DNA of 64,000 nucleotides from an uncultured bacterium (GTDB taxonomy: Bacteria > Oederibacteriota > Muellerivitia > Muellerivitales > Muellerivitaceae): assembly GCA_964525605.1 (NCBI GenBank), contig CAZGKT010000001.1, positions 133,153-197,152 on the forward strand. Reading direction: 5' to 3'. Below are positions 21,119 to 61,059 of the stretch, one piece after another. The position numbers and the translations under genes were made by a program. The notes beneath the pieces were generated by a model that did no database searches, was not told the origin of the DNA, and saw only the letters and a list, made by a program, of their open reading frames with translations. Numbering within the stretch: position 1 is the first letter of the stretch; each line of letters begins with the position of its first letter.

Positions 21119-21151
21119 GAACCTCCGAGGGTGGATAATAAAATCATGCTG

Positions 21152-24100
21152 TTAATTTCGAACAGGAGGAGGATTGTAATAAATTTCAACTTCCGGATTT
21201 TTATAAATCAATGGCAAAAAATTGGCAAATTTCGCCAATCCCAAGGTGGGGTAACCGGCTTTGCCCCCGGCTCCATTTCGTTCAATAGTCCCCACCATTA
21301 CGAGTCGAACCCCATAAGCGTCCAACATCCGCTTGGCCAATCCCAGATCCGTTGTTTCGTATATTTGGTCCACTGCCGCTTTACGGTTGTAGATATCGGT
21401 GTCCAACTGTTTTCCCACCCATTCATGTACATGTGAATCCCACCCCATAAGCGCCGGAATACCTGTGAAAATTGAAAAGCGCGAGCCCCAAGAATTATAA
21501 CCTGCACCCACAAATTCCATGAGGCAGGGCTGGTTGGGGACATGGTCGTTCAAAAAGCGAATCGCGGCGTCGTCTCCCGGGTTGGAGCGGTGCATATACT
21601 CGAGCCCGTTTAGCGTAGGGCTTTCCACATAACCAACCCATTTCAGACGAGTTGATTCAAAAAAACCATGACACTTCCTTATTGAAGCCGCCAGGGGATA
21701 AATCGATACCGCTATAGCTAGAATCAAAACCAATGTACTCCAGCATCGGAAGGCGAGTTTCGCACCCATATTCTTTTGACCTTCCCATAGGAAGGCAATT
21801 AGGGTTACTGAAAGAGCCGCAAGAGAACCCGGTAAAAGAAATTCAACATTCAGGATGTTGCTCCAATGTTGAATCAGGTTTAGAAGAGAGCCAAAACTTC
21901 CTTGAGGAAGCAAGGAAACTATTGATACAAAAATCGACATCCCTCCCAGTCCCAAACTTAAAACCCAATCAGCTGTCTTTTTCAAAGTGCTCGTTGTCAA
22001 TCTCCATATCAAAAGGCCCGCCACAACAACGATGTTAATGATATAGGTAATGGGTGTTTGGAGCGAATCGGCAAAGTTGAAAAAGATAAGTTCCAAAATT
22101 AAGAATAGAAGCACCCCGGCCACCGCAACCAGCACGCGTTTGGATACGAGAGTCTCTTTTTTAGCCGTTTTAAGCCATCCCAAAATGAAATCAATCATCT
22201 TGGGAATCAAAGCTCCCACGGCGATGGAGGCCAACATCCAGGCGTGAATTCCAAATTTAAACAAGGAGTTGTTCCGCATCCAGTCGCCGCCCAAAAACTC
22301 ACTGACGGCGAACAATTCCAAAACTGCTAAGACCAGAAATAAAAGCGCGGTTAGAATATAGGTAAAAGAAAGAGGCCGGTCCTTGATAACCTTCACGGCA
22401 AGTCCAAGATAAAAGAATCCCAAGAGCCACAAAACCGAGCAAAGACCCAACCCAAGGGTTAAAGCCATATCCTGATAAAGGTGAATTCCCTGGAGGGAGA
22501 GAACAACTATCCACAGCAATACCACCGCTGCTTCCGCCAGCCATATTTCCCAGCGAGTTTTTAACTGAACCGCAAGCACAAGCAAAATCGCGGCTACGCT
22601 GGCCAATAGCTGTGAGAAAAAGACCTTCCCCTGGGGTTCAGACCAATGAACCCAGGAAGCTCCCCAAACCACCATCAGAGAAAAGAACCCCAGTGACAAA
22701 ATTCCCCGAACGGGGTCTTTAGGGGAAAGCAATCCCGATAGAAAATCAAAGGCTTTGTCGGGCAAATTTTTCAAGAATCGTTTTTCCGGCTTGGCTTTAC
22801 CCACCCAGAGCAAAATCTCTTTGGAATAGGCCAGAACAAAACTCATTAAAAGTATTGAAAGAAAAAAACCATAAATACCAATGAAGTCGTTAAGATCCGT
22901 GCGAATGGACGGCAGAACCCAGAGAATCTTGTTTTGCTGAGGAGTAAATCGAAGAAAGTTCGGAATCCAGAACAAGCCCGCGGTCACCAATATTCCTGCC
23001 ACACCTACTGCAATAAACAGCAAGTGTTTCGAAAGAAGCCGCGTAGTTTTTTGTAAATATAGCCAGAGGACAGACGCTAAAAACCCAAGACCAAGAAATA
23101 GAATCAAGTAGAACGTGGACCCACCCAGAGCCTGTTGATCCACCCCAGGCATGATCAAGGTCCACCAACCCAGCAAGGTAAACGCAAGAACCAGAATGCT
23201 GAAAACCATGCCAGACCCTTTCACAATGGTTTTTCCATTGAGAACTACAAGTCCGCGAACCAAAAGAGTGATCCCGATGATCGCGAGCCCCGTGAGAATA
23301 TCCCAAGTATTCAGAAACACGAGCCCGCCCATCAAAAATCCAGCAACCAGAAACTTGAACCAATCCCCTTTCCAACTAAATAGCTTAGGCGCAGGGGATA
23401 AATAAATGGAAGCCACCACTCCCCATAAAAGCATGTCGAAAGGCATGGCTAGCGTATGTGAATGCATGTCGCCATAAAGCACGCTGAAATAGGGAAACTC
23501 GTTGATACTGTTCGGAATCACTCGAGAGGGGCCAAAAAAATCATAGGTAATTCCGTTAAGCGCGGACAAGTTATGGGCGACTATGCATTGGTTAATCGCG
23601 GCCAAATATTGTTTAACTCCGGTGAGGTTGCTCGCCATTGCACATAAAAAACCTGCCACCCAACCTCCCGAAAGCCGTCCCGATAAGACGTAGGCTAGAC
23701 CGAAAGCGGATGAAAAAATCAGGGCAAATAGAGTTATCAAGCTCAAGTTATAGGTCACGGCAGGTACCAGCCCCAGAGTTTTGGAGAGTATCCCCATCAT
23801 TAGATGGCCAAAATAATACGGGTAACCAATAGGTTGGCCCGCCATCCACATATTTTGTGGAGGGAATGTCTCGCCCCGCACGATGGAGGCCAAAAATCCA
23901 AAATCCATACCCGCTTCTCCACCCCCATTGTATCCTTCGCCCGAGGGATCATGCACATGAGAGGAATAAAGACGGACGAATGTGAACGCGATAAAGGCAA
24001 AAACGAACACGCCTTCTTGAATTAACCAGACACGACCCAAACGCTTATAAAAATCTTTGATAACTTTTCGGTCGCGCCAATACCCATAAACCGAAAGACC

Positions 24101-27100
24101 CGTAAGAAGCAAAAACCAAACCCAACAGGCCCCCGCTGTAAAATGCGTGATTTTCAAGCTTGTCATAAACCACACAACCCAGGTGAAAACAAGGAAACCC
24201 AGAACCTTACTGAGCGAATAGGCCCCCGCAGAAATAGGGGAAAGGATGCGAAGCGTCAGCGGTAATACGAGCCATCCGAGGACAACCAAAAGCGCCAGCC
24301 AGGTGAACCAGGCGCGGCATTGATAACCCGTCTTCTCTTCCGGTCGGGGAGGCAAATTCATGATGTCATTTTCCACAACTGGGTGGTCCGCCAGGTCTTG
24401 CAAAACCTTGAGGGTTTGAGTGTCCGGCAAGCCGGGCACGGTCGCAGGGGCCTGAACTGGGGGGGCGTTAACATCGGTCACGGAGGAAGAGGCAGCGGAT
24501 GCCGGAGGAAGTTTCCCCCCTATGGGGGGCACAATAGCAGGCAAGGTTTTTTCAGCTTGTAGTTTGTCGGGCGGCGGAGGAGATTGAGTTGCAGGCGCGG
24601 AAAGGTTGTTAAGCTTTTGAAGCAGCCCGGCCTGTTCCAGAGCCTGGTTATGTTTGCTGATGAAATCATCCACGTTTTCAGGCGTGATTGCCCTCATCTG
24701 GTCACGAGTAATGCCCCGCACGTAATCATCCGAGTTGAGAATTTCCAAGATGCGTTCTGGAGTCACTTGCTCGACTTTTTTGAAAATATAAACCCGAGGA
24801 TGGTCATACACGGAAAAGGATTCCTCAGCCATATCATCCGGATGGGCCCACCCTAGCAAGCTGGGAAAATTGTGAAATTCATGTAACATTTTGTAACCTA
24901 AAAGCCCAGCCCAGAGGGCCCGGTAATACCGGGAGGTCACTGGATAAGCATTAAACCCGTGAGGCCTGAACTCAGGAGTTTCATCCGTTAGGGTGTACCA
25001 GAGTTTCTTTGAAGAAATGGCGATATAGTCAGCCTGAGGAATCATATTGGCGTAATAATTTTTCTTTACCGGGCTGTCGTCCGTTGGAAAACCGTGCAGT
25101 TCGTAGGGAGTCAAATCCTGGAGTTGGTAAAGTCCCGGATTCATCGGCCGATCTAACCGTGAGTCCTGTTGGGGGTTCAAATCCACCGGCAACCCATCTC
25201 CCCAGGCCTCGTTATAAATCTTTGAGCCAAGGGGTATGTTTTTATAAATCCAGCCTGATGAATCAAGCCAGGGATGCGCATACCGATAGACATGCATATA
25301 GGCCATTGAATAAAAAAGGCTTCCACCAACGGTTAATGCCAATAGCGCGGGTTTGATAAACCTTTCCAGGTTTTTAGGGAGCCGATCAAACACATTCCAC
25401 AAAAAAATCGCCGCAAAAATGCAAAAAACAGGGGCCAGGGGAACCATATAGCGTATGAATTTCGTGTTCCATCCGCCAATAAAGGCGAAATAGGGGATGA
25501 ACCAAGAAAGAAGAATGAGTTCTGGCAGGATAAATCTAAACCCTTTGTTTTTCAGAAAAGGCGCTGGGAGGATCGCTCCGGAAGAAACCGGTTGAAAAAG
25601 CTGAAGAACGAATCTTCCTAAAACCCAAACCATCCCTAGTACCGCCGTGATCCCGAGGGGCCACCACAACTCCACACTGATCAGGTTCTGAAGATGAAAA
25701 ATGTATCGGGGCGTGTCTTTAAATTGCAGCACATAGCAGGCGCCCGCATCAGATACCACCGACCACTCATAATTCATTGAGTTCATAAACCCCTGGTAAT
25801 CCAAGAGGGACCATGGTGAAAGCAAACAAAAGATCAGAAATGAAAGAGCACCGGCCGAAGAAAGTCTTAACCACAGGGGTACCTGGGCCCGCAATACCCT
25901 GAATTTCGAGACTCCCCACACAAACAGGACTGCGGCCATACCTGCAAGAGAGAGAAAAAGAACAATCCAAATGCCAATGGAACCGTTGGGGTTCAAAGGG
26001 CAGAGATCACGTATGACACCCTTTAATTTATAACCTGCTCCAACCAAAGCGCCTGTACCCCCAGCGAGAAACAGTGCCGCGAGAATATTGTTCAGGCTTT
26101 GATCGTCCCTGTTTTTATGATCAAGCTTCAGCCAATCCTTTTCAGTGGTTTTCGATAAATACACCAGATGGCCGATCAAAATCATGAACAGGTAATAAAG
26201 GGAGCTTGTTTTTGCCGCCATGGAAAGACCAAAAGCCGCACCAACTAAAAGGTAATTTTTCCAAGACCCCTGCCGAGAAACTTCATACGCACCAAGTGCG
26301 ATGACCACCAACATGAGGGTGATAAAAGATTCCGTGATGCAGTAATGGCAAACCTGGATACTCACAACGGAGAAAGCGAAAAACGCAGACCCCAAAAGGG
26401 CTAGTGGTTTATTTTCATAAACCTTGTTCAGGAACCAATAAATAACCAGAATGGTCAGGGTGGAAAAAAAGGCGGCCCAAATACGCCCAATAATCATGCA
26501 ATCGCTGTAACCAGTGTATTGAAGGCCATAATGCGAGAAAGAGGCGAAAATGGCCCAAATCCCCAGGGCCATTTGAAGAAGTCGGCCCCACCGGGATTCC
26601 CAGCTAAACCAAGTAAATGCCGCTCCGACGACCAACGCAAAGGCCATGGAACCAAAGGTTCTCGCGAAAGCATCTGGAAGGAAAAATGGTATGACACCCA
26701 ATAAAAAGGTCAATCCAGCTGCGATATAAATTGGGAGTCCTAACCATTCCAATCCGATGAAATCGGACAAAAGGGCCGAAACCCCGAAAAACAAAATCGC
26801 GTCCAAGCAAAAATTCGCTCCTTTTAATGGCCAATCATTCAGAAAATCAAACCAGGCCGAAAACACTGGCACGAATTTGATAAACAAAACAAGCAAAAAC
26901 ACCCCGGAGGCGATTAAGAAAGAAGGAATTTTGAATTTTTTCCGTGGGAAAAGCCAACCGATTCCCGCAAATAGAGAGATAAGAAAAGCCCAATAAAAGA
27001 AAGCAGCTAGGAAAGCCTGGTTGGGGAAAAACGAATTGAAAAAAGACGGGGTAGAAATTAGTTCACCGGTGGCTCGATAAAGGTAAACAGGCAGTTGGCC

Positions 27101-27313
27101 GTAAGCAAAGAACTTAACCTTAAAACCATCCGAGGCTTGAATACTTGCGGTTTGACCAAGAATGTTTCTTTCATCAGGATGAAAGGACTTGCCAAAATCC
27201 CAGTTAGGATTGTAAAACCGGAAACCCGCTCCTAAGAGAGTAATAAAAACAAGTATGATAAATGTTGGATTATTCCAACGTCTCAAGACCGATAAATTGC
27301 TTTTTCGGGCCAC
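21152..27313 (-). CDS. giant (2053 aa) polytopic membrane protein: N-terminal GT-C (TIGR03663/PMT-like) module, Pro-rich linker, C-terminal DUF2298 'YYY'-like module
   Basis: N-terminal part has an early-loop 'FHPDERN' acidic motif like the 12988 protein, with >12 TM helices and a soluble domain. Pro-rich segment aa ~905-990 ('ATQSPPPPDKLQAEKTLPAIVPPIGGKLPPASAASSSVTDVNAPPVQAPATVPGLP', nt ~24346-24601). C-terminal half repeats the DUF2298 signature 'GGEAGMDFGFLASIVRGETFPPQNMWMAGQPIGYPYYFGH' (aligns to the YYY motif of the 847-aa protein). C-terminus 'PALMGWDSHVHEWVG..IYETTDLGLAKRMLDAYGVRLVMVG' aligns with the 847-aa protein C-terminus. No internal stops over 6.2 kb. Confidence 0.65.
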   Translation of the reverse strand: MARKSNLSVLRRWNNPTFIILVFITLLGAGFRFYNPNWDFGKSFHPDERNILGQTASIQASDGFKVKFFAYGQLPVYLYRATGELISTPSFFNSFFPNQAFLAAFFYWAFLISLFAGIGWLFPRKKFKIPSFLIASGVFLLVLFIKFVPVFSAWFDFLNDWPLKGANFCLDAILFFGVSALLSDFIGLEWLGLPIYIAAGLTFLLGVIPFFLPDAFARTFGSMAFALVVGAAFTWFSWESRWGRLLQMALGIWAIFASFSHYGLQYTGYSDCMIIGRIWAAFFSTLTILVIYWFLNKVYENKPLALLGSAFFAFSVVSIQVCHYCITESFITLMLVVIALGAYEVSRQGSWKNYLLVGAAFGLSMAAKTSSLYYLFMILIGHLVYLSKTTEKDWLKLDHKNRDDQSLNNILAALFLAGGTGALVGAGYKLKGVIRDLCPLNPNGSIGIWIVLFLSLAGMAAVLFVWGVSKFRVLRAQVPLWLRLSSAGALSFLIFCLLSPWSLLDYQGFMNSMNYEWSVVSDAGACYVLQFKDTPRYIFHLQNLISVELWWPLGITAVLGMVWVLGRFVLQLFQPVSSGAILPAPFLKNKGFRFILPELILLSWFIPYFAFIGGWNTKFIRYMVPLAPVFCIFAAIFLWNVFDRLPKNLERFIKPALLALTVGGSLFYSMAYMHVYRYAHPWLDSSGWIYKNIPLGSKIYNEAWGDGLPVDLNPQQDSRLDRPMNPGLYQLQDLTPYELHGFPTDDSPVKKNYYANMIPQADYIAISSKKLWYTLTDETPEFRPHGFNAYPVTSRYYRALWAGLLGYKMLHEFHNFPSLLGWAHPDDMAEESFSVYDHPRVYIFKKVEQVTPERILEILNSDDYVRGITRDQMRAITPENVDDFISKHNQALEQAGLLQKLNNLSAPATQSPPPPDKLQAEKTLPAIVPPIGGKLPPASAASSSVTDVNAPPVQAPATVPGLPDTQTLKVLQDLADHPVVENDIMNLPPRPEEKTGYQCRAWFTWLALLVVLGWLVLPLTLRILSPISAGAYSLSKVLGFLVFTWVVWFMTSLKITHFTAGACWVWFLLLTGLSVYGYWRDRKVIKDFYKRLGRVWLIQEGVFVFAFIAFTFVRLYSSHVHDPSGEGYNGGGEAGMDFGFLASIVRGETFPPQNMWMAGQPIGYPYYFGHLMMGILSKTLGLVPAVTYNLSLITLFALIFSSAFGLAYVLSGRLSGGWVAGFLCAMASNLTGVKQYLAAINQCIVAHNLSALNGITYDFFGPSRVIPNSINEFPYFSVLYGDMHSHTLAMPFDMLLWGVVASIYLSPAPKLFSWKGDWFKFLVAGFLMGGLVFLNTWDILTGLAIIGITLLVRGLVVLNGKTIVKGSGMVFSILVLAFTLLGWWTLIMPGVDQQALGGSTFYLILFLGLGFLASVLWLYLQKTTRLLSKHLLFIAVGVAGILVTAGLFWIPNFLRFTPQQNKILWVLPSIRTDLNDFIGIYGFFLSILLMSFVLAYSKEILLWVGKAKPEKRFLKNLPDKAFDFLSGLLSPKDPVRGILSLGFFSLMVVWGASWVHWSEPQGKVFFSQLLASVAAILLVLAVQLKTRWEIWLAEAAVVLLWIVVLSLQGIHLYQDMALTLGLGLCSVLWLLGFFYLGLAVKVIKDRPLSFTYILTALLFLVLAVLELFAVSEFLGGDWMRNNSLFKFGIHAWMLASIAVGALIPKMIDFILGWLKTAKKETLVSKRVLVAVAGVLLFLILELIFFNFADSLQTPITYIINIVVVAGLLIWRLTTSTLKKTADWVLSLGLGGMSIFVSIVSLLPQGSFGSLLNLIQHWSNILNVEFLLPGSLAALSVTLIAFLWEGQKNMGAKLAFRCWSTLVLILAIAVSIYPLAASIRKCHGFFESTRLKWVGYVESPTLNGLEYMHRSNPGDDAAIRFLNDHVPNQPCLMEFVGAGYNSWGSRFSIFTGIPALMGWDSHVHEWVGKQLDTDIYNRKAAVDQIYETTDLGLAKRMLDAYGVRLVMVGTIERNGAGGKAGYPTLGLAKFANFLPLIYKNPEVEIYYNPPPVRN

Positions 27314-33914: not shown

Positions 33915-34033
<119 letters not shown>

Positions 34034-34129
34034 ACATCGAGATCGTTAACTGTTATTAGCAGTTAAAAAGATTGATTGAAATACTATCCTTGAACCAAAG
34101 TGGATTAGGAATTGCGGTGAAGATGAAAC

Positions 34130-37163
<3,034 letters not shown>

Positions 37164-37370
37164 CATGCTTCTTCGCCACCGCATAAGAATTCACTAATGC
37201 ACTCGGTTCAGCTAATAATAGTATTTCAATCAATTGTCAAAGAACCGCCCCGCTTTTAAAAAGCGGTTCTGGCCATCAGCCAGAAGATACTTTCACTCAA
37301 GAAGTAAAAGCTCCGTGAATTTCTAGCAATAAAAATTCACGCAACCTTCACTCGAAGCCACCACCATTTA

Positions 37371-37446
37371 TGGTGGAGATGACCGGGATCGAACCGGTGA
37401 CCCCCTGCTTGCAAAGCAGGTGCTCTCCCAACTGAGCTACATCCCC
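37371..37446 (-). tRNA. tRNA-Ala (anticodon TGC), in the 16S-23S spacer
   Basis: Revcomp 'GGGGAUGUAGCUCAGUUGGGAGAGCACCUGCUUUGCAAGCAGGGGGUCACCGGUUCGAUCCCGGUCAUCUCCACCA'. Cloverleaf with G3:U70 and a CCA end. Confidence 0.9.
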
Positions 37447-37475
37447 CCGGATCTAACCAGAAGCCCACGCATAGA

Positions 37476-37552
37476 TGGTGGGCCTAACTGGAGTCGAACC
37501 AGTCACCTCGCCCTTATCAGGGGCGCGCTCTAACCAACTGAGCTATAGGCCC
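37476..37552 (-). tRNA. tRNA-Ile (anticodon GAT), in the 16S-23S spacer
   Basis: Revcomp 'GGGCCUAUAGCUCAGUUGGUUAGAGCGCGCCCCUGAUAAGGGCGAGGUGACUGGUUCGACUCCAGUUAGGCCCACCA'. Confidence 0.9.
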
Positions 37553-37712
37553 ATCCCAGTTTGGCGCAGACAGGCAAAAAAATGCCCTCAACTTTAAAAG
37601 AACCGATTCGGTATCGGTCTCTCAAAACTAAATAGTGCTCAACTTGTTTAGGTATCCACTTGGAGTTACGTTAAGGCGCACCCTAAATAGGGTTCCCCTA
37701 ACATGTTCTCCA

Positions 37713-39262
<1,550 letters not shown>

Positions 39263-39578
39263 GAATTTGAGGCTCTAAAAACTCAAACTACTATTGACTA
39301 GCACCCAAACTTATTTCGTAAGCACTATTTAGTTTTCAAAGACCGATCACAGACAAGCATCCATACGATGCTTACCCCACCGGAGACAACAATATTCGCC
39401 GGTGCCGTAAGCACCGCAATCGAAGCCAACTTACATTCGATTGTGTGGGTATCGTATTTAAAAGAACAACTTCACCGCTCACCAGAGGAGCAGGGGCCAC
39501 AAGCCATAGTGGCCGGGGAATGTGTTATACAAAAATAGCTCTTCCCCGTCAACAATATTTTACATAATCTTTAAATAT

Positions 39579-52830: not shown

Positions 52831-55350
52831 CTATCGAAGAATCAACACCTTCTTAAGCCACTTATCTGATGGGGTGGTCACAACGGCGTAGAAAAGGCCA
52901 TTGCTGATCTTGGAGAGGTCGAAATCATCCAGGATGAGGGTATAGGCCCCGGCGGACACGTATGGCCAATTACGCTGATAGATCTTCCGGTATGCCGTGG
53001 TGAAAATCTTGACCGTTACGTAATCGTGCGGCTGGCTGAAATAAACAGCAACCTGGAGGGGTCCATTCCCCTTCACCGGGTTGGGATAAATAACCGGCGG
53101 TTGGTTGGTCGCAATAGTTGGTGACGGCGTCGCGGTTAGCGTGACGGTAACGGTTACAGTTTGTGTTATCGATAAGGTCGGGCTAGGCGTGAAGGTGAAG
53201 GTATTTGTGGGGGTAGAGGAATAGGTCCAGGTCGAGGTCACAGTGGGTGTATTGGTTATCGTGCTGGTAACGGTCCATGTGGGGGTAAAGGTGGGAGTTA
53301 GAGTAACGGTGGGCGTTAAAGAGATGGTCGGGGTATTGGTGATAGTGGGGGTATTGGTCGCCGTGAGTGTATTGGTCACGGTTCCCGTATTGGTGGGCGT
53401 CATGGTCCAGGTGGGGGACAGGGTTTCCGTAGGTGAGGGGGTATAAGTAAGGGTATTGGTGATCGTGGGGGTATTGGACGAAGTGGCTGTATTGGTGGGT
53501 GTTCCGGTCCAAGTGGAGGTATTTGTATTTGTTGGCGAAAGAGTAAATGTCGAAGTGTTGGTAATCGTAAGAGTCGAAGTCACCGTGGGAGTGTTGGTGG
53601 ATGTCGTAGTGGAAGTCGCTGTCGAGGTCGCAGTGGGGCTTAGGGTATCCGTGATAGTAGAAGTTACCGTTGGCGTGTCTGAAACCGTAAAGGTTGAGGT
53701 AACGGTGGATGTAACTGTTGGAGTGCTGGTAAAGGTAAATGTCGGGGACAGGGTCGAGGTTAAGGTATTGGTGGGGCTTAGCGTAATGGTAGGAGTGTTG
53801 GTGACGGTATTGGTAAAGGTCATCGTGAGGGTATTTGTTATGGTGCTTGTCTGGGTAATGGTGGGCGAAAGCGTGGGGGTACTGGTGTTGACCGTCCCGG
53901 GACAAAAACTGGCATAGATCGAATCCCACCCGTTATTACCACCGTTCACCGTGAAATAGGAAACAGGGCTACTGAACCCCGAAGATGCATTCGGAAAGGT
54001 AAAACCCGGGTTTAAAACGTAGCCGATGACCCCCCAGGTGGTGGCCGGGGAGTTCTGGTAATTAAAGACGAAACTCAGAGGCGCGTCAAATTCGTAGGTC
54101 AGCCAATAGTTCCCCGCCGCCAGGTAGGTTGGGTTCATCTGCAGGATGTTCCATTGTCCCGGGGTTACCATCATATAAGTCACGGATTGGGCCTGCAGGT
54201 TTCCCATAACCCAGGTGGTCCCAGATGAAGCCGCACTATATATGGCGGATTGAATGTAAGCTCCGGTGTCCAAACTGTTGTTCGGGACATAGAGCGACAT
54301 CGTATAAACCGTCCCCGCCTGAGGCAGGTTATAAAAGTCGGCCCGCATTTCCTCTTGGACAGCCGTAGCCGGGCCTCCAGCTGAAATTGTATCCCCAAAA
54401 TAAGTTACAGCGCTCCCGCATGGCGGGGTTAAGGAAAGATTGGGAGTGACTGTATCAGTTTGAGACGGAGTCTCGGACATCGTTGGGACAGGCGTATAGG
54501 TGAAGGTTAAAGTCGGAGTGTTGGTATAAATCGTCCCGGTCATTGTTGCGGTTGATGTGATGGTGGGCGTCGGTGAAACGGTGGGCGTGTTGGTCGGAGT
54601 GATGGTGTTGGATACTGTCGGGGTGCTGGTCGGAACAATACAATAGTTGGCGTAAATGGGCACATTACCCGCGCCATAGGCGATGCTTGCCGGGGCGGAA
54701 CTGGGTAGACTCCCAAAGACTTGGGATGCGGTCGTATAAACTAAATATCCATTCGTCCCTGTCGCGTAATTCAGGCTGTACCCGTTTGTGTTGTACATAT
54801 AAACCAACCAATAGAACCCCGAACTTAACTCGGTCGGTGTTATGAAAAATCCATTCCAGCCGGCTACGACCGGTTGAGGTGCTGATTGAACGACGAGAGT
54901 CCCCAGACTGCTGACGCTCCCAGAGTAGATGCCGACGATCAAAGACGCTCCCCCGGAATTGCTCCAAGCCGTGAGGCTGTAAACCGAAGCCGGTTTGCTC
55001 AAAGTATATAAACTTCCGTAAATTCCAGGAGCGGTAGCCGCACTCCCATTGTTTAATCCGGTCGCGTTATTCCCAAAGAAAGTCGCCGAAGCTCCGCAGG
55101 GGGGAGTAAGTGTTAAATTCTGGGTTGGTGAATCGGTGGGGGTATTCGTCGGCAGGTTGGTGTTTGTGATGGTCGGGGTCATTGTGATCGTTGGAGTATT
55201 GGTCATCGTTCGGGTCATTGTGGGCGTCGAGGAATTCGTGAAAGTCCGCGTTACCGTGGGCGTGGAAGTATTGGCTGCAAAACCGTTGGTCGACACGAGT
55301 AAAAGTAATCCCGTTAACAAAACCAAAGACGTAAACCGCAAGGTGGTCAT
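52831..55350 (-). CDS. secreted Thr/Pro/Ser-rich mucin-like surface protein with T9SS-type C-terminal sorting domain (Por_Secre_tail-like)
   Basis: 839 aa with a signal peptide ([17 protein letters not shown]). Two lectin/Ig-like globular segments separated by long 'TPT(V/I)T(N/S)T' low-complexity tracts (hundreds of Thr). C-terminal ~85 aa '[79 protein letters not shown]' matches the T9SS CTD pattern (YPNP ... G.Y.... G.Y...V....... K.L). Confidence 0.7.
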
Positions 55351-55463: not shown

Positions 55464-57023
55464 CTAATTGTCCGACCGGCGGAGCACCTGGCCTGGGTAA
55501 CCGTTCAAGAAGTATCCCTTCCCGAAAACCTGTTGGCCGTTGACTAATACCATCCTCATGCCGGTGGGCGGAACCCCGGGATTAACGGCCGTGGCATTGT
55601 CCCCGATCGTCTTGTAGTCGAAGACTACCACATCTCCCCAGAAACCGGGTTTCAACTGGCCCCTATCTTTCAATCCCATCAACCCAGCCGGTTCCTTCGT
55701 GAGCCGTTCAATCGCCTCGGAAAGACGAATGACACCCTGATCCCTGACGTAGGTTCCCAAAAGACGGGGAAAGGCACCCACATCCCTGGGGTGAGGGATG
55801 GTGGCTGCCGAATCGGACCCAAAAAGCACGTAGGGCGATTGGATCTTCTTGATCAGCCCCTCTTCCGAAAGACCGTGGTAACAGATTTTGACATCCTTTC
55901 CGTTTTCAAGGAGCAGGGCCAGAATCGTGTTCTCCTCCGATAGATTGCGTTGTTGGGCCAGTTCTTTGAGGGTTAATCCTAGTGCGGAACGGGAAGATTT
56001 ATTTCGCACCATCGTGATTTCGATTTTGTCCCCACCGCCGTATTCCTGAAGCCGGCGCTTAATTCGGGCCATCGCGTCGTCCGCCTTGTCTTCTTTGTGG
56101 TAGAAAGACCAGCGGGATGTATCCTCAGGCAAGTAAAGGAACTGATAGAGGGGGATTTGAACCTCGTTGCCCCAAAAGTCATAAGGGTAAACCGTGGCAT
56201 AGGCCTGTAAGCCCCGTCCCCTCGCCTCTTCCAACAAACGAAGCCCGCTTTCCGTCTGGTCCCAGTTGCTGGGCAATTTGAAGAGCAAATGTTGAATCAC
56301 CACAGGAACCTTATCCGTCTCCCCCAAGTGAAGGGCCTCTTTGATGGCATCGAGCACGCCCGAACGGTAATTGCGGATATGGGTGTAATAAACCGCGTGG
56401 GGATATTTGGAAAGTACGGATGCGAGATCTTCTAATTCGGCGCTTTGGCACCATTCCCCCGGCTCGTAGCCCAACCCGCTGGAAAGGCCGAAAGCCCCGG
56501 CTTTGAGACCCAATTCTAAAAAGTTCTTCATCTTGGTCATGGCAACGGCATCGGCCGGCTTTTGCTTTTGGGTCTTTACGAACCAATCCCTCACGCTTCC
56601 CTGGCCTAACAGGGTCCCCAGGTTGATCAGACCCCTGTGTTTTTGCAATTTTTGGAGGTTTTTTTCGACATCTAGGATCGAAAAGCCGCAATTACCCGCC
56701 AAGCCGGAAGTGACCCCCCTGCGGATGGCCTTTTGCTGTTCCGTGAAGGACCAGAGCAGGTCATTGTGGCAAAGCAGGTCGATAAAGCCCGGGGCCACCA
56801 CAAAGCCCTTTACATCCACTTCTTTCTTGGCCGTATAGGGTGGCAAAACCCCAACCGCGGCGATCTTGCCGTCTTTAATGGCCAAGTTGCCCTGGTAGGG
56901 CGGAAGACCGGACCCATCCATGATGGTCCCGTTCAAGAGGACGAAGTCATACTGCACTGGCTCGACGGCAAAGGCCGAGGCCGAGAGGACGAGAACGATG
57001 ATGATAAAGAAAAACTTGTTCAA
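55464..57023 (-). CDS. amidohydrolase-superfamily enzyme, N-acyl-D-amino-acid deacylase (D-aminoacylase) family, secreted
   Basis: 519 aa with a signal peptide. 'DFVLLNGTIMDGSG', 'GFIDLLCHND' (metal-binding HxH-type start of a TIM-barrel amidohydrolase). Length and C-terminal beta-sandwich insert typical of D-aminoacylases. Confidence 0.7.
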   Translation of the reverse strand: MNKFFFIIIVLVLSASAFAVEPVQYDFVLLNGTIMDGSGLPPYQGNLAIKDGKIAAVGVLPPYTAKKEVDVKGFVVAPGFIDLLCHNDLLWSFTEQQKAIRRGVTSGLAGNCGFSILDVEKNLQKLQKHRGLINLGTLLGQGSVRDWFVKTQKQKPADAVAMTKMKNFLELGLKAGAFGLSSGLGYEPGEWCQSAELEDLASVLSKYPHAVYYTHIRNYRSGVLDAIKEALHLGETDKVPVVIQHLLFKLPSNWDQTESGLRLLEEARGRGLQAYATVYPYDFWGNEVQIPLYQFLYLPEDTSRWSFYHKEDKADDAMARIKRRLQEYGGGDKIEITMVRNKSSRSALGLTLKELAQQRNLSEENTILALLLENGKDVKICYHGLSEEGLIKKIQSPYVLFGSDSAATIPHPRDVGAFPRLLGTYVRDQGVIRLSEAIERLTKEPAGLMGLKDRGQLKPGFWGDVVVFDYKTIGDNATAVNPGVPPTGMRMVLVNGQQVFGKGYFLNGYPGQVLRRSDN

Positions 57024-57123
57024 TTCAGTTTTACCTTCTCAATTAAGTTTGGTGTCATTGCGAGGAATGCCCGACGAATAGTCGGGCGTTCATGACGAAG
57101 CAATCCCAGTTTAAATATGCCTT

Positions 57124-57185
57124 ACAACAATCTAACGCGAACATCGAACTGAGATTGCCACGTCGGCAAACGCCCCGATTGGGGC
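57124..57185 (+). repeat. 62-bp conserved intergenic element, copy 1 (between the amidohydrolase start and rsmB stop)
   Basis: 'aacgcgaacatcgaactgagattgccacgtcggcaaacgccccgattggggcgcctcctcgc' matches 61833-61894 with 3 mismatches. Contains the hairpin cgcccc-gatt-ggggcg. Copy 1 is bracketed by a 12-13-bp inverted repeat (tgtcattgcgagg at 57053 / cctcgcaatgaca at 57182). Confidence 0.5.
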
Positions 57186-57214
57186 GCCTCCTCGCAATGA
57201 CAACTTGGGAACTT

Positions 57215-59338
57215 CTAATTCCTAATCTTCTGCACTACCGACAAGAAACCTCCGTCCCGGTCACCCGTGGGGAGGAACGTAACTCCCCATTTGTCCTTCA
57301 AAAGATTCGTAACCTCTGAAGGAGAATCGGGTATGGCCAAGTCCCATCCTGGATGGGATTCCATGAACGTCTTTATTAAATCCTGGTTTTCTTCCCTTTC
57401 CAGCGAGCAGGTGCTGTAAATCAAATAGCCCTTGGGGTAAAGATGCCCGTGGACTTCCTCCAGTAGTTTGAGCTGTTCGATCGCGTGCTTTTTGATTTCA
57501 TCGGGCCTTAACTTCCACCGCAAATCAGCCCGGCGGGACAAGACGCCCGTGCCGCTACAAGGCGCATCCACCCAGATAAGATCAAACTTCTGAGAGGGCG
57601 GAATTTTTTCGATGGCTTCCTCATACACCCTCACCTTGTTCAACCCCAACCGGCGCAGGTTTTCTTTCAGTTTCACCATGCGAACAGGCGAAAAGTCGGT
57701 GGCCCAAACCTCGCCCTTCTCGCCCAGCTTCCAGGCCAGGCCCGCCGTCTTACCGCCCGGGGCCGCGCAAACATCCCACGCCCTAAAGACATTATTGAAG
57801 GGGAGCATTTCCAACATGGCCTGGGGGGTCCAATCCTGCACAAACCAATCGCCCTGTCCAAAACTATCGCCGGAAAAGAGACCGCCTTCATGGCTTGCCA
57901 ACCGAAGGGTGTAGGGAGGCCAAGCCAAGGGCTCGACCCGAACATTCTGGGTCAGCAGATCGGCCTGAACTTTCGCACCCGTGCCGGGTTTGGAACGCAA
58001 AAAGACCGGATGGGGCTTGTTGTTGGCGGCCAGCACCGGTTCCAGGTTCTCGGTATTGAGGCCGTCGGCTGACAGGCCGGTCGCCCAACGGCGTACCAAC
58101 CAGGTGGGATGGGAATACTTGATGGCTAGGGTATCCATGTCGTCTTCGCCCGTGATCTTGAAATCGGCTTTTTGTTTTTCGGCGTTGCGTAGGACCGCGT
58201 TGGAAAAACCGGCAAGGGATTCCTGCCCCGCGCCTTTGACCAGGTTCACCGCCTCGTGTACCGCCGCGTGGGCGGGTACCCGGGTGAGGAACAAAAGTTG
58301 GTAGATTCCCATGCGCAGGGAAATTTTGACCTCGACCGGTAATTTGGCGAAGGGTGATTGGCAAAGCTTATCCAGATGGTAATCCAGCAAACGCTTTTGG
58401 CGGGTGCAGCCATATACTATTTCCCGAAAGAGGGCCATATCCTCGGGAATCAATCCACGAACTTCCATTACATCCGCCACCTTAGCGCCCTTTTCAATCT
58501 TCAAAAGCGCCTTGGCCGATTCAAGCCTAGAAGGAGAAACGGTATCACTGGGGCCGACTTCTCCCGCAGGGCGGGGACCGGTAGGCCTGGGGCCGGTGGG
58601 CATGGAACCTGAAACCATTCCTGGCCGTGGCCTAATAGAATCGGGACCACCCGGCTTGCTGGGGCCGCGAAAGGTCGGGCGGCTGCCGGGGCCAGGGCCC
58701 CTGCGATCCCCAAACTTTGAAGGACCACTTGGCCTGGGGTGGAACGATTCTTTTGGCCGAGGCGCGGCCTGATCAACGGATTTCACCGGAGGCGCGAGTT
58801 TGCTTACGGATGCTGGAATTACTATTCCAGCTCCCGCGAACGTCGGCACGAATGGGGCTGGCGCGGGTGGTTTGGGGGGGTCATCCGAATGCACAGGCGA
58901 GGAAACAACTGGAGACGTTCCCGACCTGTAGGATTTTCTTGGACCGCCAAAATTTTTGGTGCCCATCGGTCCCTTCGGACGATAGGGCCCCTTGGAATCA
59001 TGGGATTTAAATCTCCCCCTGGGAGCGTTTGGATCTCTGGGTTTGTACGAACCCTTGGGAAGAGACGGTCTCGGGGGGCCACTGGGCCCCTTGGAATCAA
59101 ACGAACGCTTGGGTTCAAACGACCGCGGGGGAGCATTTGGATCACCTGACTTGTACGGGCCCTTCGAGTCAAACGGTCGCTTGGGGCCGAACGACCCCTT
59201 CGGTTTATAGGGAGCCTTGGACGCATTTGGGTCACGGGGTTTATAAGGCCCTTTGGCGTCCCGTGGTTTGTAAGGGCCTTTCGGCTTGTAGGGGCCTTTA
59301 GGTTTGTCGTTTCTTGGTTTATGGGGAGGGGGGGTCAC
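57215..59338 (-). CDS. rsmB: 16S rRNA m5C967 methyltransferase RsmB/Sun with a ~260-aa N-terminal Lys/Pro/Gly-rich repeat extension
   Basis: The C-terminal ~440 aa carry the NusB-like domain ('ALFREIVYGCTRQKRLLDYHL') and the MTase motifs 'VCAAPGGKT', 'DAPCSGTGV', 'YSTCSL'. The N-terminal 260 aa are in-frame degenerate repeats 'KPKGPYKPKGPYKPRDAKGPYKPRDPNASKAPYKPKGSFGPKRP..'. The GTG start overlaps the fmt stop (GTGA). Confidence 0.8.
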   Translation of the reverse strand: MTPPPHKPRNDKPKGPYKPKGPYKPRDAKGPYKPRDPNASKAPYKPKGSFGPKRPFDSKGPYKSGDPNAPPRSFEPKRSFDSKGPSGPPRPSLPKGSYKPRDPNAPRGRFKSHDSKGPYRPKGPMGTKNFGGPRKSYRSGTSPVVSSPVHSDDPPKPPAPAPFVPTFAGAGIVIPASVSKLAPPVKSVDQAAPRPKESFHPRPSGPSKFGDRRGPGPGSRPTFRGPSKPGGPDSIRPRPGMVSGSMPTGPRPTGPRPAGEVGPSDTVSPSRLESAKALLKIEKGAKVADVMEVRGLIPEDMALFREIVYGCTRQKRLLDYHLDKLCQSPFAKLPVEVKISLRMGIYQLLFLTRVPAHAAVHEAVNLVKGAGQESLAGFSNAVLRNAEKQKADFKITGEDDMDTLAIKYSHPTWLVRRWATGLSADGLNTENLEPVLAANNKPHPVFLRSKPGTGAKVQADLLTQNVRVEPLAWPPYTLRLASHEGGLFSGDSFGQGDWFVQDWTPQAMLEMLPFNNVFRAWDVCAAPGGKTAGLAWKLGEKGEVWATDFSPVRMVKLKENLRRLGLNKVRVYEEAIEKIPPSQKFDLIWVDAPCSGTGVLSRRADLRWKLRPDEIKKHAIEQLKLLEEVHGHLYPKGYLIYSTCSLEREENQDLIKTFMESHPGWDLAIPDSPSEVTNLLKDKWGVTFLPTGDRDGGFLSVVQKIRN

Positions 59339-60396
59339 TTGAGCCTTTCACCTGGTTTGAAATTGGGATGGCCTAAGGTGAACTCGAAGGCGCCCATGCG
59401 TTTTTTCCCTGGAGGCTGAATTTCCTTCAACAGCACTCTTCCCTTCCCTGATGCAACTTCCACGCCTTCTTTACCGACCGCCAACACCTCGCCGGGTGTG
59501 GTGGAAACCGTTCCATCAAGCGCCTTCGCCGAAAATAGTCTTAAGGGCATTTCGCCCCACTGGGTTTCCGCCACGGGCCAGGGGGCCAAGCCCCGAATCT
59601 GGTTGACGACTTCAGGAGCTGATTTCTCCCATTGCACCCTGCACTTTTCCCTTTTGATGCTCGGGGAGAAGGTGGCTAGGGAGTGGTCCTGTGGAATGCG
59701 GGGAGCCTTGTTCTCAGCAAGGAGGGCCAGCGCCTCCACGATGCCTTCTGCGCCAAGAATGGCCAAACGATCGTGCACATCGCCAGTGCATTCATCCGGC
59801 CCGATAGGGGTTTTCTTGACCAGTAACATGTCGCCGTCATCCAGCTTTTCGCCCATGTACATGATGGTGACGCCCGTTTCAGTTTCACCCGCCATCACGG
59901 CGTAATGGATCGGAGCCGCGCCCCGGTATTTGGGAAGAATCGAGCCGTGAATATTCAAGTTGGTGACCGTGGGCACCTGCAAAACGGAGAGGGGGAGAAT
60001 TTGTCCGTAGGCCGCGACCACCGTGACGTCGGGCGGGTGGGACTTTAACATCTCGACCGATTCGGGAAATTTTATTTTTTCAGGCTGAAACACCTCGAGG
60101 CCCAGTTCCACCGCGGTCTTCTTGACCGGCGAGGCCTTGAGCTCCAGGCCGCGACCCGCGGGACGGTCGGGCTGGGTAACGACCAGCGTTAGGGGATACC
60201 CGGCCCCATGGAGGGCCTTTAGGGCGGGCACGGCAAAATCCGACGTTCCCATGAACAAGATTTTTAAAGGTGGTTTCAAGGACGATCCGATGACCTTCGA
60301 ATGTGCTTCGCCAGGAGGGAAATTATAAGGTAATTCGTCGTGGATAATGTAGGAATATCCAGTAAACAAGGCAAGGCACAGACAACACAAAGCCAC
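59335..60396 (-). CDS. fmt: methionyl-tRNA formyltransferase
   Basis: Core 'ILFMGTSDFAVPALKAL..', 'HGSILPKYRGAAPI', and the C-terminal Fmt domain. The annotated ORF start probably over-extends; the conserved N-terminus (KILFMGT) begins near 60252-60270. Confidence 0.85.
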   Translation of the reverse strand: MALCCLCLALFTGYSYIIHDELPYNFPPGEAHSKVIGSSLKPPLKILFMGTSDFAVPALKALHGAGYPLTLVVTQPDRPAGRGLELKASPVKKTAVELGLEVFQPEKIKFPESVEMLKSHPPDVTVVAAYGQILPLSVLQVPTVTNLNIHGSILPKYRGAAPIHYAVMAGETETGVTIMYMGEKLDDGDMLLVKKTPIGPDECTGDVHDRLAILGAEGIVEALALLAENKAPRIPQDHSLATFSPSIKREKCRVQWEKSAPEVVNQIRGLAPWPVAETQWGEMPLRLFSAKALDGTVSTTPGEVLAVGKEGVEVASGKGRVLLKEIQPPGKKRMGAFEFTLGHPNFKPGERLK

Positions 60397-60518
60397 GAAG
60401 ACACTAAGTAAACCAAAATTAGAGAATCAAGGCCAATCGGAAGCCAAAAACTAAGACCTTAGGTAGTTATTCAAAATTCTTGTTTTCACTTTGTGTCTTC
60501 GTGTCTTTGTGTTGGATG
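60379..60518. other. long inverted repeat (19-bp arms, ~95-bp spacer) spanning the def-fmt intergenic region
   Basis: 'cacaaagccacgaagacac' (60386-60404) versus 'gtgtcttcgtgtctttgtg' (60494-60512): 18/19 complementary. The spacer is A-rich. Confidence 0.3.
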
Positions 60519-60531
60519 CTGGTTTGGCTTT

Positions 60532-61059
60532 TTAAAGCCGGATGGGGGCTTTTTCGAAGTTCTTCTTCAGCTGATGCAGTTGTTTCTGGTGGAAAAGCCT
60601 TTTGACGGCGGGTATTCGCTGAATGAAAAGCTGGCCGTTCATGTGGTCGATCTCGTGTAATACGCAGCGTGCCAAGAGGCCCTCGTAATCGCGGGTTTGT
60701 TCCTTGCCCTCCAAGTCTTGAAACTTCACCTTCACCTTCAGAGCCCTCTCTACCTCTTCCCTGACATCGGGGATGGAAAGACAACCTTCTTCGGACAGAT
60801 CGCTTCCATCCTCTTCCAACACCACGGGGTTGACCAAGGCGGTGGATTCACCCTTTTCTTCCTGATCGTAACGCTCGTCCATCACCATCATACGGATCGC
60901 TTCGCCAATCTGGATGGCCGCCAACCCCACGCCGTTGGCATCCCGCATGGTTTCGGTCATGTTTCCGGCCAGGGTCTTGAGTTCGGGTGTGAAGGCGGTC
61001 ACGGGCTTGCTCTTGTGCTTCAAGCGGGGATCGGGATATAGAACGATTGGAAGAACCAT
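60532..61059 (-). CDS. def: peptide deformylase
   Basis: 175 aa: 'GVGLAAIQIGE' (motif 1), 'EGCLSIPD' (motif 2), 'HEIDHMNGQLF' (HExxH motif 3). Confidence 0.9.
   Translation of the reverse strand: MVLPIVLYPDPRLKHKSKPVTAFTPELKTLAGNMTETMRDANGVGLAAIQIGEAIRMMVMDERYDQEEKGESTALVNPVVLEEDGSDLSEEGCLSIPDVREEVERALKVKVKFQDLEGKEQTRDYEGLLARCVLHEIDHMNGQLFIQRIPAVKRLFHQKQLHQLKKNFEKAPIRL

Follow-up and report, generated by a model that had tools for sequence, protein, structure and literature searches.

A long basic N-terminal tail, predicted to be disordered, on the 16S rRNA methyltransferase RsmB of candidate division FCPU426

The closest described relative of the protein studied here is E. coli RsmB (Fmu/Sun; structures 1SQF and 1SQG), in which a NusB-like domain and a central domain precede a 5-methylcytosine (m5C) methyltransferase core with the PC and TC cysteine motifs, and whose gene lies in the order def-fmt-rsmB. 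The enzyme is handled as a monomer (PMC13004024) and methylates naked 16S rRNA, not 30S subunits (PMC2836557). RsmB and RsmD also alter the folding of nascent 16S rRNA independently of S-adenosylmethionine (PMC13004024). Here we analyse the rsmB gene found in a 64,000-nucleotide (nt) stretch of DNA, called the window below, from an uncultured soil or peat bacterium of candidate division FCPU426; all coordinates are positions within this window. The encoded protein shares the domains, both motifs and the gene order with its E. coli counterpart. It differs at the N-terminus: the solved E. coli chains (424-425 residues) start straight at the NusB-like domain, whereas the window protein has 265 basic residues, predicted to be disordered, ahead of it.

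NOP2/NSUN1 (p120) has a homologous m5C methyltransferase domain, and Nop2 chains from pre-60S particles are the next-best structural matches to the window core after E. coli Fmu and archaeal PH0851. NOP2 also carries a long basic, low-complexity or disordered N-terminal region that is linked to nucleolar localisation. The layout is therefore parallel, the methyltransferase being preceded in both by a basic disordered N-terminus; nevertheless the tails are not homologous, and the resemblance would be convergent. NOP2 further differs in having no NusB-like domain and in targeting 25S/28S rRNA within pre-60S particles.

A likeness of another kind is found in atypical Rho factors, for example the NID of M. 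tuberculosis Rho or the Rho of Bacteroides thetaiotaomicron, where lineage-specific and compositionally extreme disorder sits at the RNA-binding end and is hypervariable yet retained (PMC11347177, PMC13650167). In M. tuberculosis, Rho needs its disordered insertion domain to recruit RNA productively (PMC13650167). Additions of this kind form a broad pattern among bacterial Rho factors; phase separation has been predicted for them and demonstrated for one (PMC11347177). There is no homology to the RsmB tail: Rho is a hexameric helicase and not a methyltransferase, many of its disordered regions are insertions and not N-terminal, and function has been shown for Rho, while the RsmB tail is known from sequence. 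A search of the accessible literature for RsmB together with N-terminal extension and disorder found no paper.

A canonical RsmB core behind a basic tail

Residues 266-707 of the protein are canonical RsmB (Table 1), in line with a preliminary description of this DNA that had called the NusB-like and catalytic domains canonical. The Pfam domains are in place, and the S-adenosylmethionine motif CAAPGGKT, the catalytic Cys594 (DAPCSG) and Cys644 (STCS) are invariant in 47 clade sequences. AlphaFold2 models the helical bundle of the NusB-like domain with a predicted local distance difference test score (pLDDT) above 90, and the best Foldseek matches to the core are 1sqf and 1sqg, both E. coli Fmu/RsmB (E 5e-29, target-normalised TM 0.85, 29% identity). 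Scores against the NCBIfam rsmB equivalog TIGR00563 (268.3 bits, cut-off 269.05) and PRK14902 (281, cut-off 319) fall just below the cut-offs, as expected for a deep-branching phylum. Because the rRNA operon lies in the same window, the target base can be read directly: the 16S rRNA gene has the sequence TTCGACGCAACGCGAAG, with both G966 and C967 present. Based on domain architecture, fold, motifs, synteny and target base, we identify the protein as RsmB, the 16S rRNA m5C967 methyltransferase, and predict it to be catalytically intact. It is a variant of a known enzyme, otherwise a canonical RsmB, and not a new system. The protein does not fit the NOP2/NSUN1 subfamily, with TIGR00446 (nop2p) scoring 102 bits against a cut-off of 210 and the NusB domain present.

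Residues 1-265 form a tail rich in Lys, Pro, Gly, Arg and Ser (24% Pro, 12% Gly, 11% Lys, 9% Arg, 7% Tyr plus Phe), with an isoelectric point (pI) of 10.9 and a net charge of +35; it begins VTPPPHKPRNDKPKGPYKPKGPYKPRDAKGPYKPRDPNASKAPYKPKG. The preliminary description had presented the extension as made of KPKGPY repeats, which is correct for roughly its first half. Amino acids (aa) 14-126 contain about 13 degenerate units of the form [KR]-G/A/R-P/S-[YF]-K, four of them exact KGPYK and some with RDPNAP spacers, whereas aa 131-265 are not KPKGPY repeats. At the DNA level, tandem repeats (periods 18 and 27) are detectable only in the first ~110 nt.

The tail is predicted to be intrinsically disordered, an expectation the preliminary description had put forward for checking: AlphaFold2, run on a 47-sequence alignment, gives residues 1-262 a pLDDT of 36-49, below 50 throughout, and no secondary structure, compared with more than 90 in the core. 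Pfam has no match to aa 1-265, the 265-aa tail alone found no match at E<=0.001 in a database of 5.8 billion proteins (with composition correction), and no PDB sequence matched it at E<=10. When all open reading frames (ORFs) of at least 80 aa in the window were scanned for similar basic Pro/Gly/Ser-rich segments, rsmB alone was returned. From its sequence, the tail would yield the tryptic peptides SGTSPVVSSPVHSDDPPKPPAPAPFVPTFAGAGIVIPASVSK (long) and GPSGPPRPSLPK.

Translation of the tail and its retention in FCPU426

The rsmB frame contains no stop in the 265 tail codons, compared with 5 and 15 stops in the other two sense frames, and only 0.26% of 5000 dinucleotide-preserving shuffles are stop-free. 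This bears out the in-frame, stop-free extension of about 800 nt described earlier, for which the strand (minus) had been left unstated.

A metagenome scan using tail residues 1-150 as the query recovered a 743-aa orthologue with the same GTGA junction (L038; L### labels denote the loci of relatives and P#### labels representatives of the RsmB family). The contigs of L037 (see below) and L038 come from soil and peat sites (JGI 3300018038 and Ga0182030, respectively). The tail of L038 is 88% identical to that of the window over 265 aligned codons, and the sole indel is an in-frame gain of 36 codons of repeat units in L038. The two tails differ by 0.43 synonymous (dS) and 0.064 nonsynonymous (dN) substitutions per site, a dN/dS of 0.15 compared with 0.027 in the core, and their substitutions are distributed 23/13/67 over codon positions 1/2/3. 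Read in the shifted sense frames, the same alignment gives dN/dS of 1.4 and 2.3, which excludes repeat composition or codon bias as the whole explanation of the open frame, a caveat of the preliminary description. Two further comparisons do not lend themselves to a rate test: the one with L001 suffers from saturation at synonymous sites (pS 0.72-0.78) and from an ambiguous alignment of the tails, and a 99%-identical strain (L036) has just 4 tail substitutions, which is too few. On this substitution pattern, the tail is protein-coding in the rsmB frame and under purifying selection. Being coding in frame and selected at the peptide level, it would be translated, and we consider it very probable that the tail is part of the protein.

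As a separate observation, synonymous divergence is lower in the tail (58544-59338) than in the core (57215-58543) in both close comparisons. Synonymous changes relative to L036 number 2 in the tail and 17 in the core, and the dS of the tail to L038 given above compares with 0.75 in the core. Codon-choice constraint, repeat homogenisation or nucleotide-level constraint are possible causes. Rfam has no match at E<=1 in 57000-60600, and thus no known RNA element there.

The preliminary description had suggested comparing orthologues, and these turn out to carry the extension. Scanning one genome per GTDB species gave 28 loci with 44-85% core identity (L001-L028), mostly labelled candidate division FCPU426, with one Firestonebacteria and some mislabelled as proteobacterium, as well as 7 out-group loci from Neomarinimicrobiota, Glassbacteria and Gemmatimonadota. 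The frame and start counts below refer to those 27 FCPU426-type loci whose core identity is 47% or more. In all 27, no stop interrupts the frame between the first start codon and the NusB-like domain, and it encodes a basic extension of 42-530 aa, while the remaining five frames of this DNA are mostly interrupted by stops (up to 25 per frame). Each of the 27 tails is strongly basic, with a pI of 10.6-12 and a net charge between +9 and +73, and they have a pooled composition of 21% Pro, 14% Arg, 13% Ser, 13% Gly and 8% Lys.

The tails evolve quickly and can hardly be aligned. Between the window and L001, tail identity is 42% and core identity 85%. The second, Pro/Ala-rich segment of the window tail is nearly identical in L038, and a similar stretch is found in L001. 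The chemistry varies as well: K/P/G/Y in the window, GRPPFR-type repeats in L003, L016 and L028, and histone-H1-like K/A/V runs in L017, L022 and L023. Some local patterns recur. The positions flanking the 203 Tyr/Phe residues of the tails are enriched in Gly at -4, in Arg/Lys at -3, in Pro at -1 and again in Arg/Lys at +1 and +2. The motif [RK]P.[FY][RKS] (mostly RPPFR) is present in 18 of the 27 tails scored, the window included, often ~25-60 residues from the core; the copy in the window is RPTFR (aa 220-224). As judged from these alignments, the tail is lineage-wide; its sequence and length drift fast through in-frame gain and loss of repeats, yet the encoded protein is under purifying selection.

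The rsmB start overlaps the fmt stop in the 4-nt junction GTGA, which the preliminary description had read as consistent with coupled translation from this far-upstream GTG. Our results agree with it. The 4-nt ATGA/GTGA overlap between the first start and the fmt stop is kept in 18 of the 27 loci, in addition to the window and L038, independently of tail length; L006 would join them should the GTG 48 codons ahead of its core be the true start. In seven other loci (L003, L005, L009, L010, L013, L016, L028), 65-453 nt of spacer follow fmt, and tails of 97-284 aa are still present. In this spacer class we also noted a conserved A-rich leader (aagaaagtaa) and an N-terminus of the form ME(T/I/N)..., mostly METPS..., in six loci and MKPN in L013. 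The anti-Shine-Dalgarno tail of the window's own 16S rRNA can be read directly from the same rRNA operon, and Shine-Dalgarno (SD) duplex energies were scored with it; a truncated generic anti-SD sequence did not discriminate between starts. The AGGTGA ahead of the upstream GTG scores -8.4 kcal/mol, better than the median over the window's gene starts (-5.8).

An alternative is that translation begins at an internal Met only, so that the ~720 nt after fmt are an untranslated spacer whose open frame results from repeat composition. Internal Met codons lie at aa 125, 241 and 246. The public gene call on the 99%-identical contig (L036/L037) indeed starts rsmB at M241 and leaves the 716 nt after fmt unannotated (616-1331, corresponding to window 58619-59334); many clade database entries are 410-450 aa long, and M246 has a moderate SD-like match (-7.2 kcal/mol). 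Nonetheless M241 scores -3.2 kcal/mol, below background and thus no SD, and M246 is Ile in L036. In eleven relatives, L001 among them, the 60 codons before the core contain neither ATG nor GTG nor TTG, so that a conventional-length enzyme cannot be made there. A spacer would also have to account for the dN/dS of 0.15 and third-position-dominated substitutions, for the absence of stops in all 27 loci against the rarity of stop-free shuffles, and for the lack of any Rfam RNA in the region. These comparisons leave the internal-start-only reading effectively refuted.

A short isoform may be made in addition to the long one, giving tailed and untailed pools from the coupled GTG and from M241 or M246. 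The window, L036 and L038 all keep M241; M246, with its moderate SD-like match, is shared by the window and L038; and in several relatives a Met lies 6-29 codons ahead of the core. The internal Met codons are not conserved across the clade, though, being absent in the same 11 loci; M241 has no SD, and nothing in the sequence demands a second start. We regard two isoforms as rather improbable.

Gene callers thus disagree on this gene: called rsmB lengths within the clade range from 410 to 753 aa, and up to one third of the protein is absent from some database entries. The overlap of the fmt stop with the rsmB start provides a simple rule for correcting the annotation.

Outside FCPU426, the core was searched against 1.84 billion representatives at 50% identity, and the 150 best RsmB representatives were inspected. 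In ten of these 150, 100 or more residues precede the matched region: eight are basic low-complexity tails, one is a folded extra domain and one an internal insertion. For example, P0182, P0197, P0107, P0240 and P0201 have, like the window protein, long N-terminal tails (100-400 aa) whose repeats consist of Arg/Lys, Pro, Gly and Tyr/Phe (GDRAPRPYGDRAPRPGG in P0182, KPFRKPGAKPFGKPYGKPGG in P0197), but their cores are 35-38% identical to that of the window and the tail sequences are unrelated. As the tail sequences are unrelated, they were probably acquired independently. The literature that could be searched describes none of these proteins. Long basic tails are thus the rule in FCPU426 and a recurrent minority (~5%) elsewhere. 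The preliminary description had called such an extension atypical for bacterial RsmB, which is right for the family as a whole and wrong for this phylum.

Possible roles of the tail

We favour, with some reserve, an explanation in which this long RsmB uses its translated, disordered polycationic tail as an RNA-capturing arm. Translation would start at the GTG overlapping the fmt stop, coupled to fmt and assisted by AGGTGA, to give the 707-aa product. The tail would present basic-aromatic KGPYKP units separated by Pro/Gly/Ser spacers and act as a flexible, non-specific RNA-binding arm through Lys/Arg contacts to phosphates and stacking of Tyr/Phe on bases. On naked, probably nascent, 16S rRNA, which would be the substrate instead of assembled 30S, the arm may raise the capture rate and dwell time on unfolded RNA and perhaps contribute RNA-chaperone activity. 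This would best explain a polycation with spaced aromatics, because RsmB acts on naked rRNA and reshapes the folding of nascent 16S rRNA. The closest case with a demonstrated function is the disordered insertion domain of M. tuberculosis Rho described above. That RNA capture is the main role of the tail we put at even chances. The preliminary description had offered tethering of the enzyme to rRNA or to condensates as hypothetical functions.

Several results weigh against this explanation. Alternative frames of the same DNA also encode basic peptides (mean charge of +0.12 to +0.16 per residue in three of the five), so the constant positive charge of the tails is not proof of selection. L026, the deepest FCPU426-labelled relative, and all out-groups have 3-29 aa before the core or no tail. 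Tail chemistry differs widely among lineages (K/P/G/Y, R/P/S/F, histone-H1-like K/A/V), which suggests a loose requirement for a polycation that could equally serve the binding of DNA or polyphosphate. Finally, as no homologue is detectable outside RsmB, composition is the source from which the functional reading is drawn.

The tail could accordingly be real with a main partner other than rRNA, such as the nucleoid or DNA near rrn operons (in the manner of histone H1 or AlgP) or polyphosphate, or it could drive condensate formation instead of simply raising RNA affinity. The KKAAVKK-type, K/A/V-rich tails of some clade members resemble bacterial H1-like DNA-binding repeats, and the regular spacing of aromatic and basic units amounts to a sticker-spacer pattern. 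Phase separation predicted for disordered additions to Rho, and shown for one, points the same way (PMC11347177). On the other hand, 21-24% Pro and a Lys-dominant charge are untypical of strong condensate drivers, and, the known substrate being RNA, an RNA partner is the simpler assumption; we hold a non-rRNA partner to be unlikely. A further possibility is that the tail is translated and essentially functionless, a product of tolerated replication slippage at the 5′ end that persists because the start is locked to the fmt stop. The range of lengths, the fast turnover relative to the core, the repeat-unit indels and a charge that is partly a composition effect would all fit. The lock, however, cannot explain retention, because the seven spacer loci have an independent start and keep their tails. 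Purifying selection on the peptide (dN/dS 0.15), the absence of any locus with at least 47% core identity that has lost its tail, and the recurrence of comparable tails in other RsmB lineages also speak for a function, and make a functionless tail very doubtful in our view.

Beyond RNA capture by a single enzyme, one can imagine a multivalent tail that condenses together with nascent rRNA and so gathers the early steps of 30S assembly and modification at sites of rrn transcription, which would make it a convergent bacterial counterpart of the disordered N-terminus of nucleolar NOP2. We consider this a long shot. Further ribosome-biogenesis factors may bear such tails too, both in FCPU426 and in the other lineages where similar RsmB tails evolved independently.

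Genomic setting and meaning for the lineage

The window has the classical gene order def-fmt-rsmB. The fmt gene lies upstream of rsmB in 28 of 28 FCPU426-type loci (L001-L028) and in five of the seven out-group loci, the exceptions being L029 and L032.

Table 1. Coordinates of rsmB, its domains and tail segments, and associated features in the window
Feature	Coordinates	Strand	Details
rsmB, full ORF including N-terminal tail	57215..59338	minus	707 aa; GTG start at 59338
m5C methyltransferase domain (Methyltr_RsmB-F)	57245..57781	minus	aa 520-698; PF01189, E 1e-40; CAAPGGKT, DAPCSG (Cys594), STCS (Cys644)
RsmF/B ferredoxin-like central domain	57893..58111	minus	aa 410-482; Pfam
NusB-like RNA-binding domain	58175..58525	minus	aa 272-388; PF01029, E 5e-26; preceded by lineage-conserved helix SPSRLESAKALLKIEKGAKVADV
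Tail segment 3	58544..58738	minus	aa 201-265; Arg/Pro/Gly/Ser-rich; includes RPTFR (aa 220-224, nt 58667-58681)
Internal Met codons M241 and M246	58601..58618	minus	candidate starts; M241 at 58616-58618, M246 at 58601-58603
Tail segment 2	58739..58903	minus	aa 146-200; Pro/Ala/Val-rich, weakly charged; PPKPPAPAPFVPTFAGAGIVIPASVSK...
Tail segment 1	58949..59305	minus	aa 12-130; degenerate basic-aromatic repeats, KGPYKP(RDPNAP); the number of units differs in frame from strain to strain (L038: +36 codons)
GTGA junction	59335..59338	minus	rsmB GTG (59338-59336) overlaps fmt TGA stop (59337-59335); putative translational-coupling junction
Shine-Dalgarno-like AGGTGA	59348..59353	minus	inside fmt 3′ end, 9 nt 5′ of GTG; complementary to UCACCU of the window's 16S 3′ tail; -8.4 kcal/mol
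fmt, methionyl-tRNA formyltransferase	59335..60396	minus	directly upstream of rsmB in the def-fmt-rsmB operon
def, peptide deformylase	60532..61059	minus	upstream of fmt
16S rRNA, presumed RsmB substrate	37716..39263	minus	helix-31 loop keeps G966/C967 equivalents; 3′ tail GGATCACCTCCTTTCT, canonical anti-SD
tRNA-Ile(gat)	37476-37552	minus	rRNA operon
tRNA-Ala(tgc)	37371-37446	minus	rRNA operon
23S rRNA	34132-37162	minus	rRNA operon
5S rRNA	33916-34031	minus	rRNA operon

The longest ORF of fmt begins ~43 residues ahead of the beginning of the TIGR00460 model. Some relatives conserve part of these residues, with tblastn matches that begin at query residues 4-15, and the true start of fmt is therefore uncertain. 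The rRNA operon is complete (33916-39263, minus strand) and lies ~18 kb from rsmB. Other unusual proteins are encoded on the minus strand of the window. An 839-aa ORF (52831-55350) has an apparent signal-like hydrophobic start at its N-terminus and long Thr/Pro/Ser/Asn-rich (TNTPT...) low-complexity linkers around two globular segments of ~200 aa, with no Pfam match. Two neighbouring large DUF2298 membrane proteins of 847 and 2053 aa are encoded at 18575-27313, and the larger one has ~1000 additional N-terminal residues without a Pfam match.

The tailed RsmB adds a housekeeping rRNA-modification enzyme, from an uncultured phylum, to the short list of conserved RNA enzymes of bacteria with lineage-specific disordered regions, such as Rho and RNase E. 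Tail lengths of 42-530 aa form a natural series that suits tests of tail function. With naked rRNA as the substrate, the tail offers a direct way to ask whether polycationic disorder promotes the early, co-transcriptional stages of bacterial ribosome assembly. The finding would gain significance if the tail turned out to organise these early stages, or if other biogenesis factors of this phylum carried such tails.

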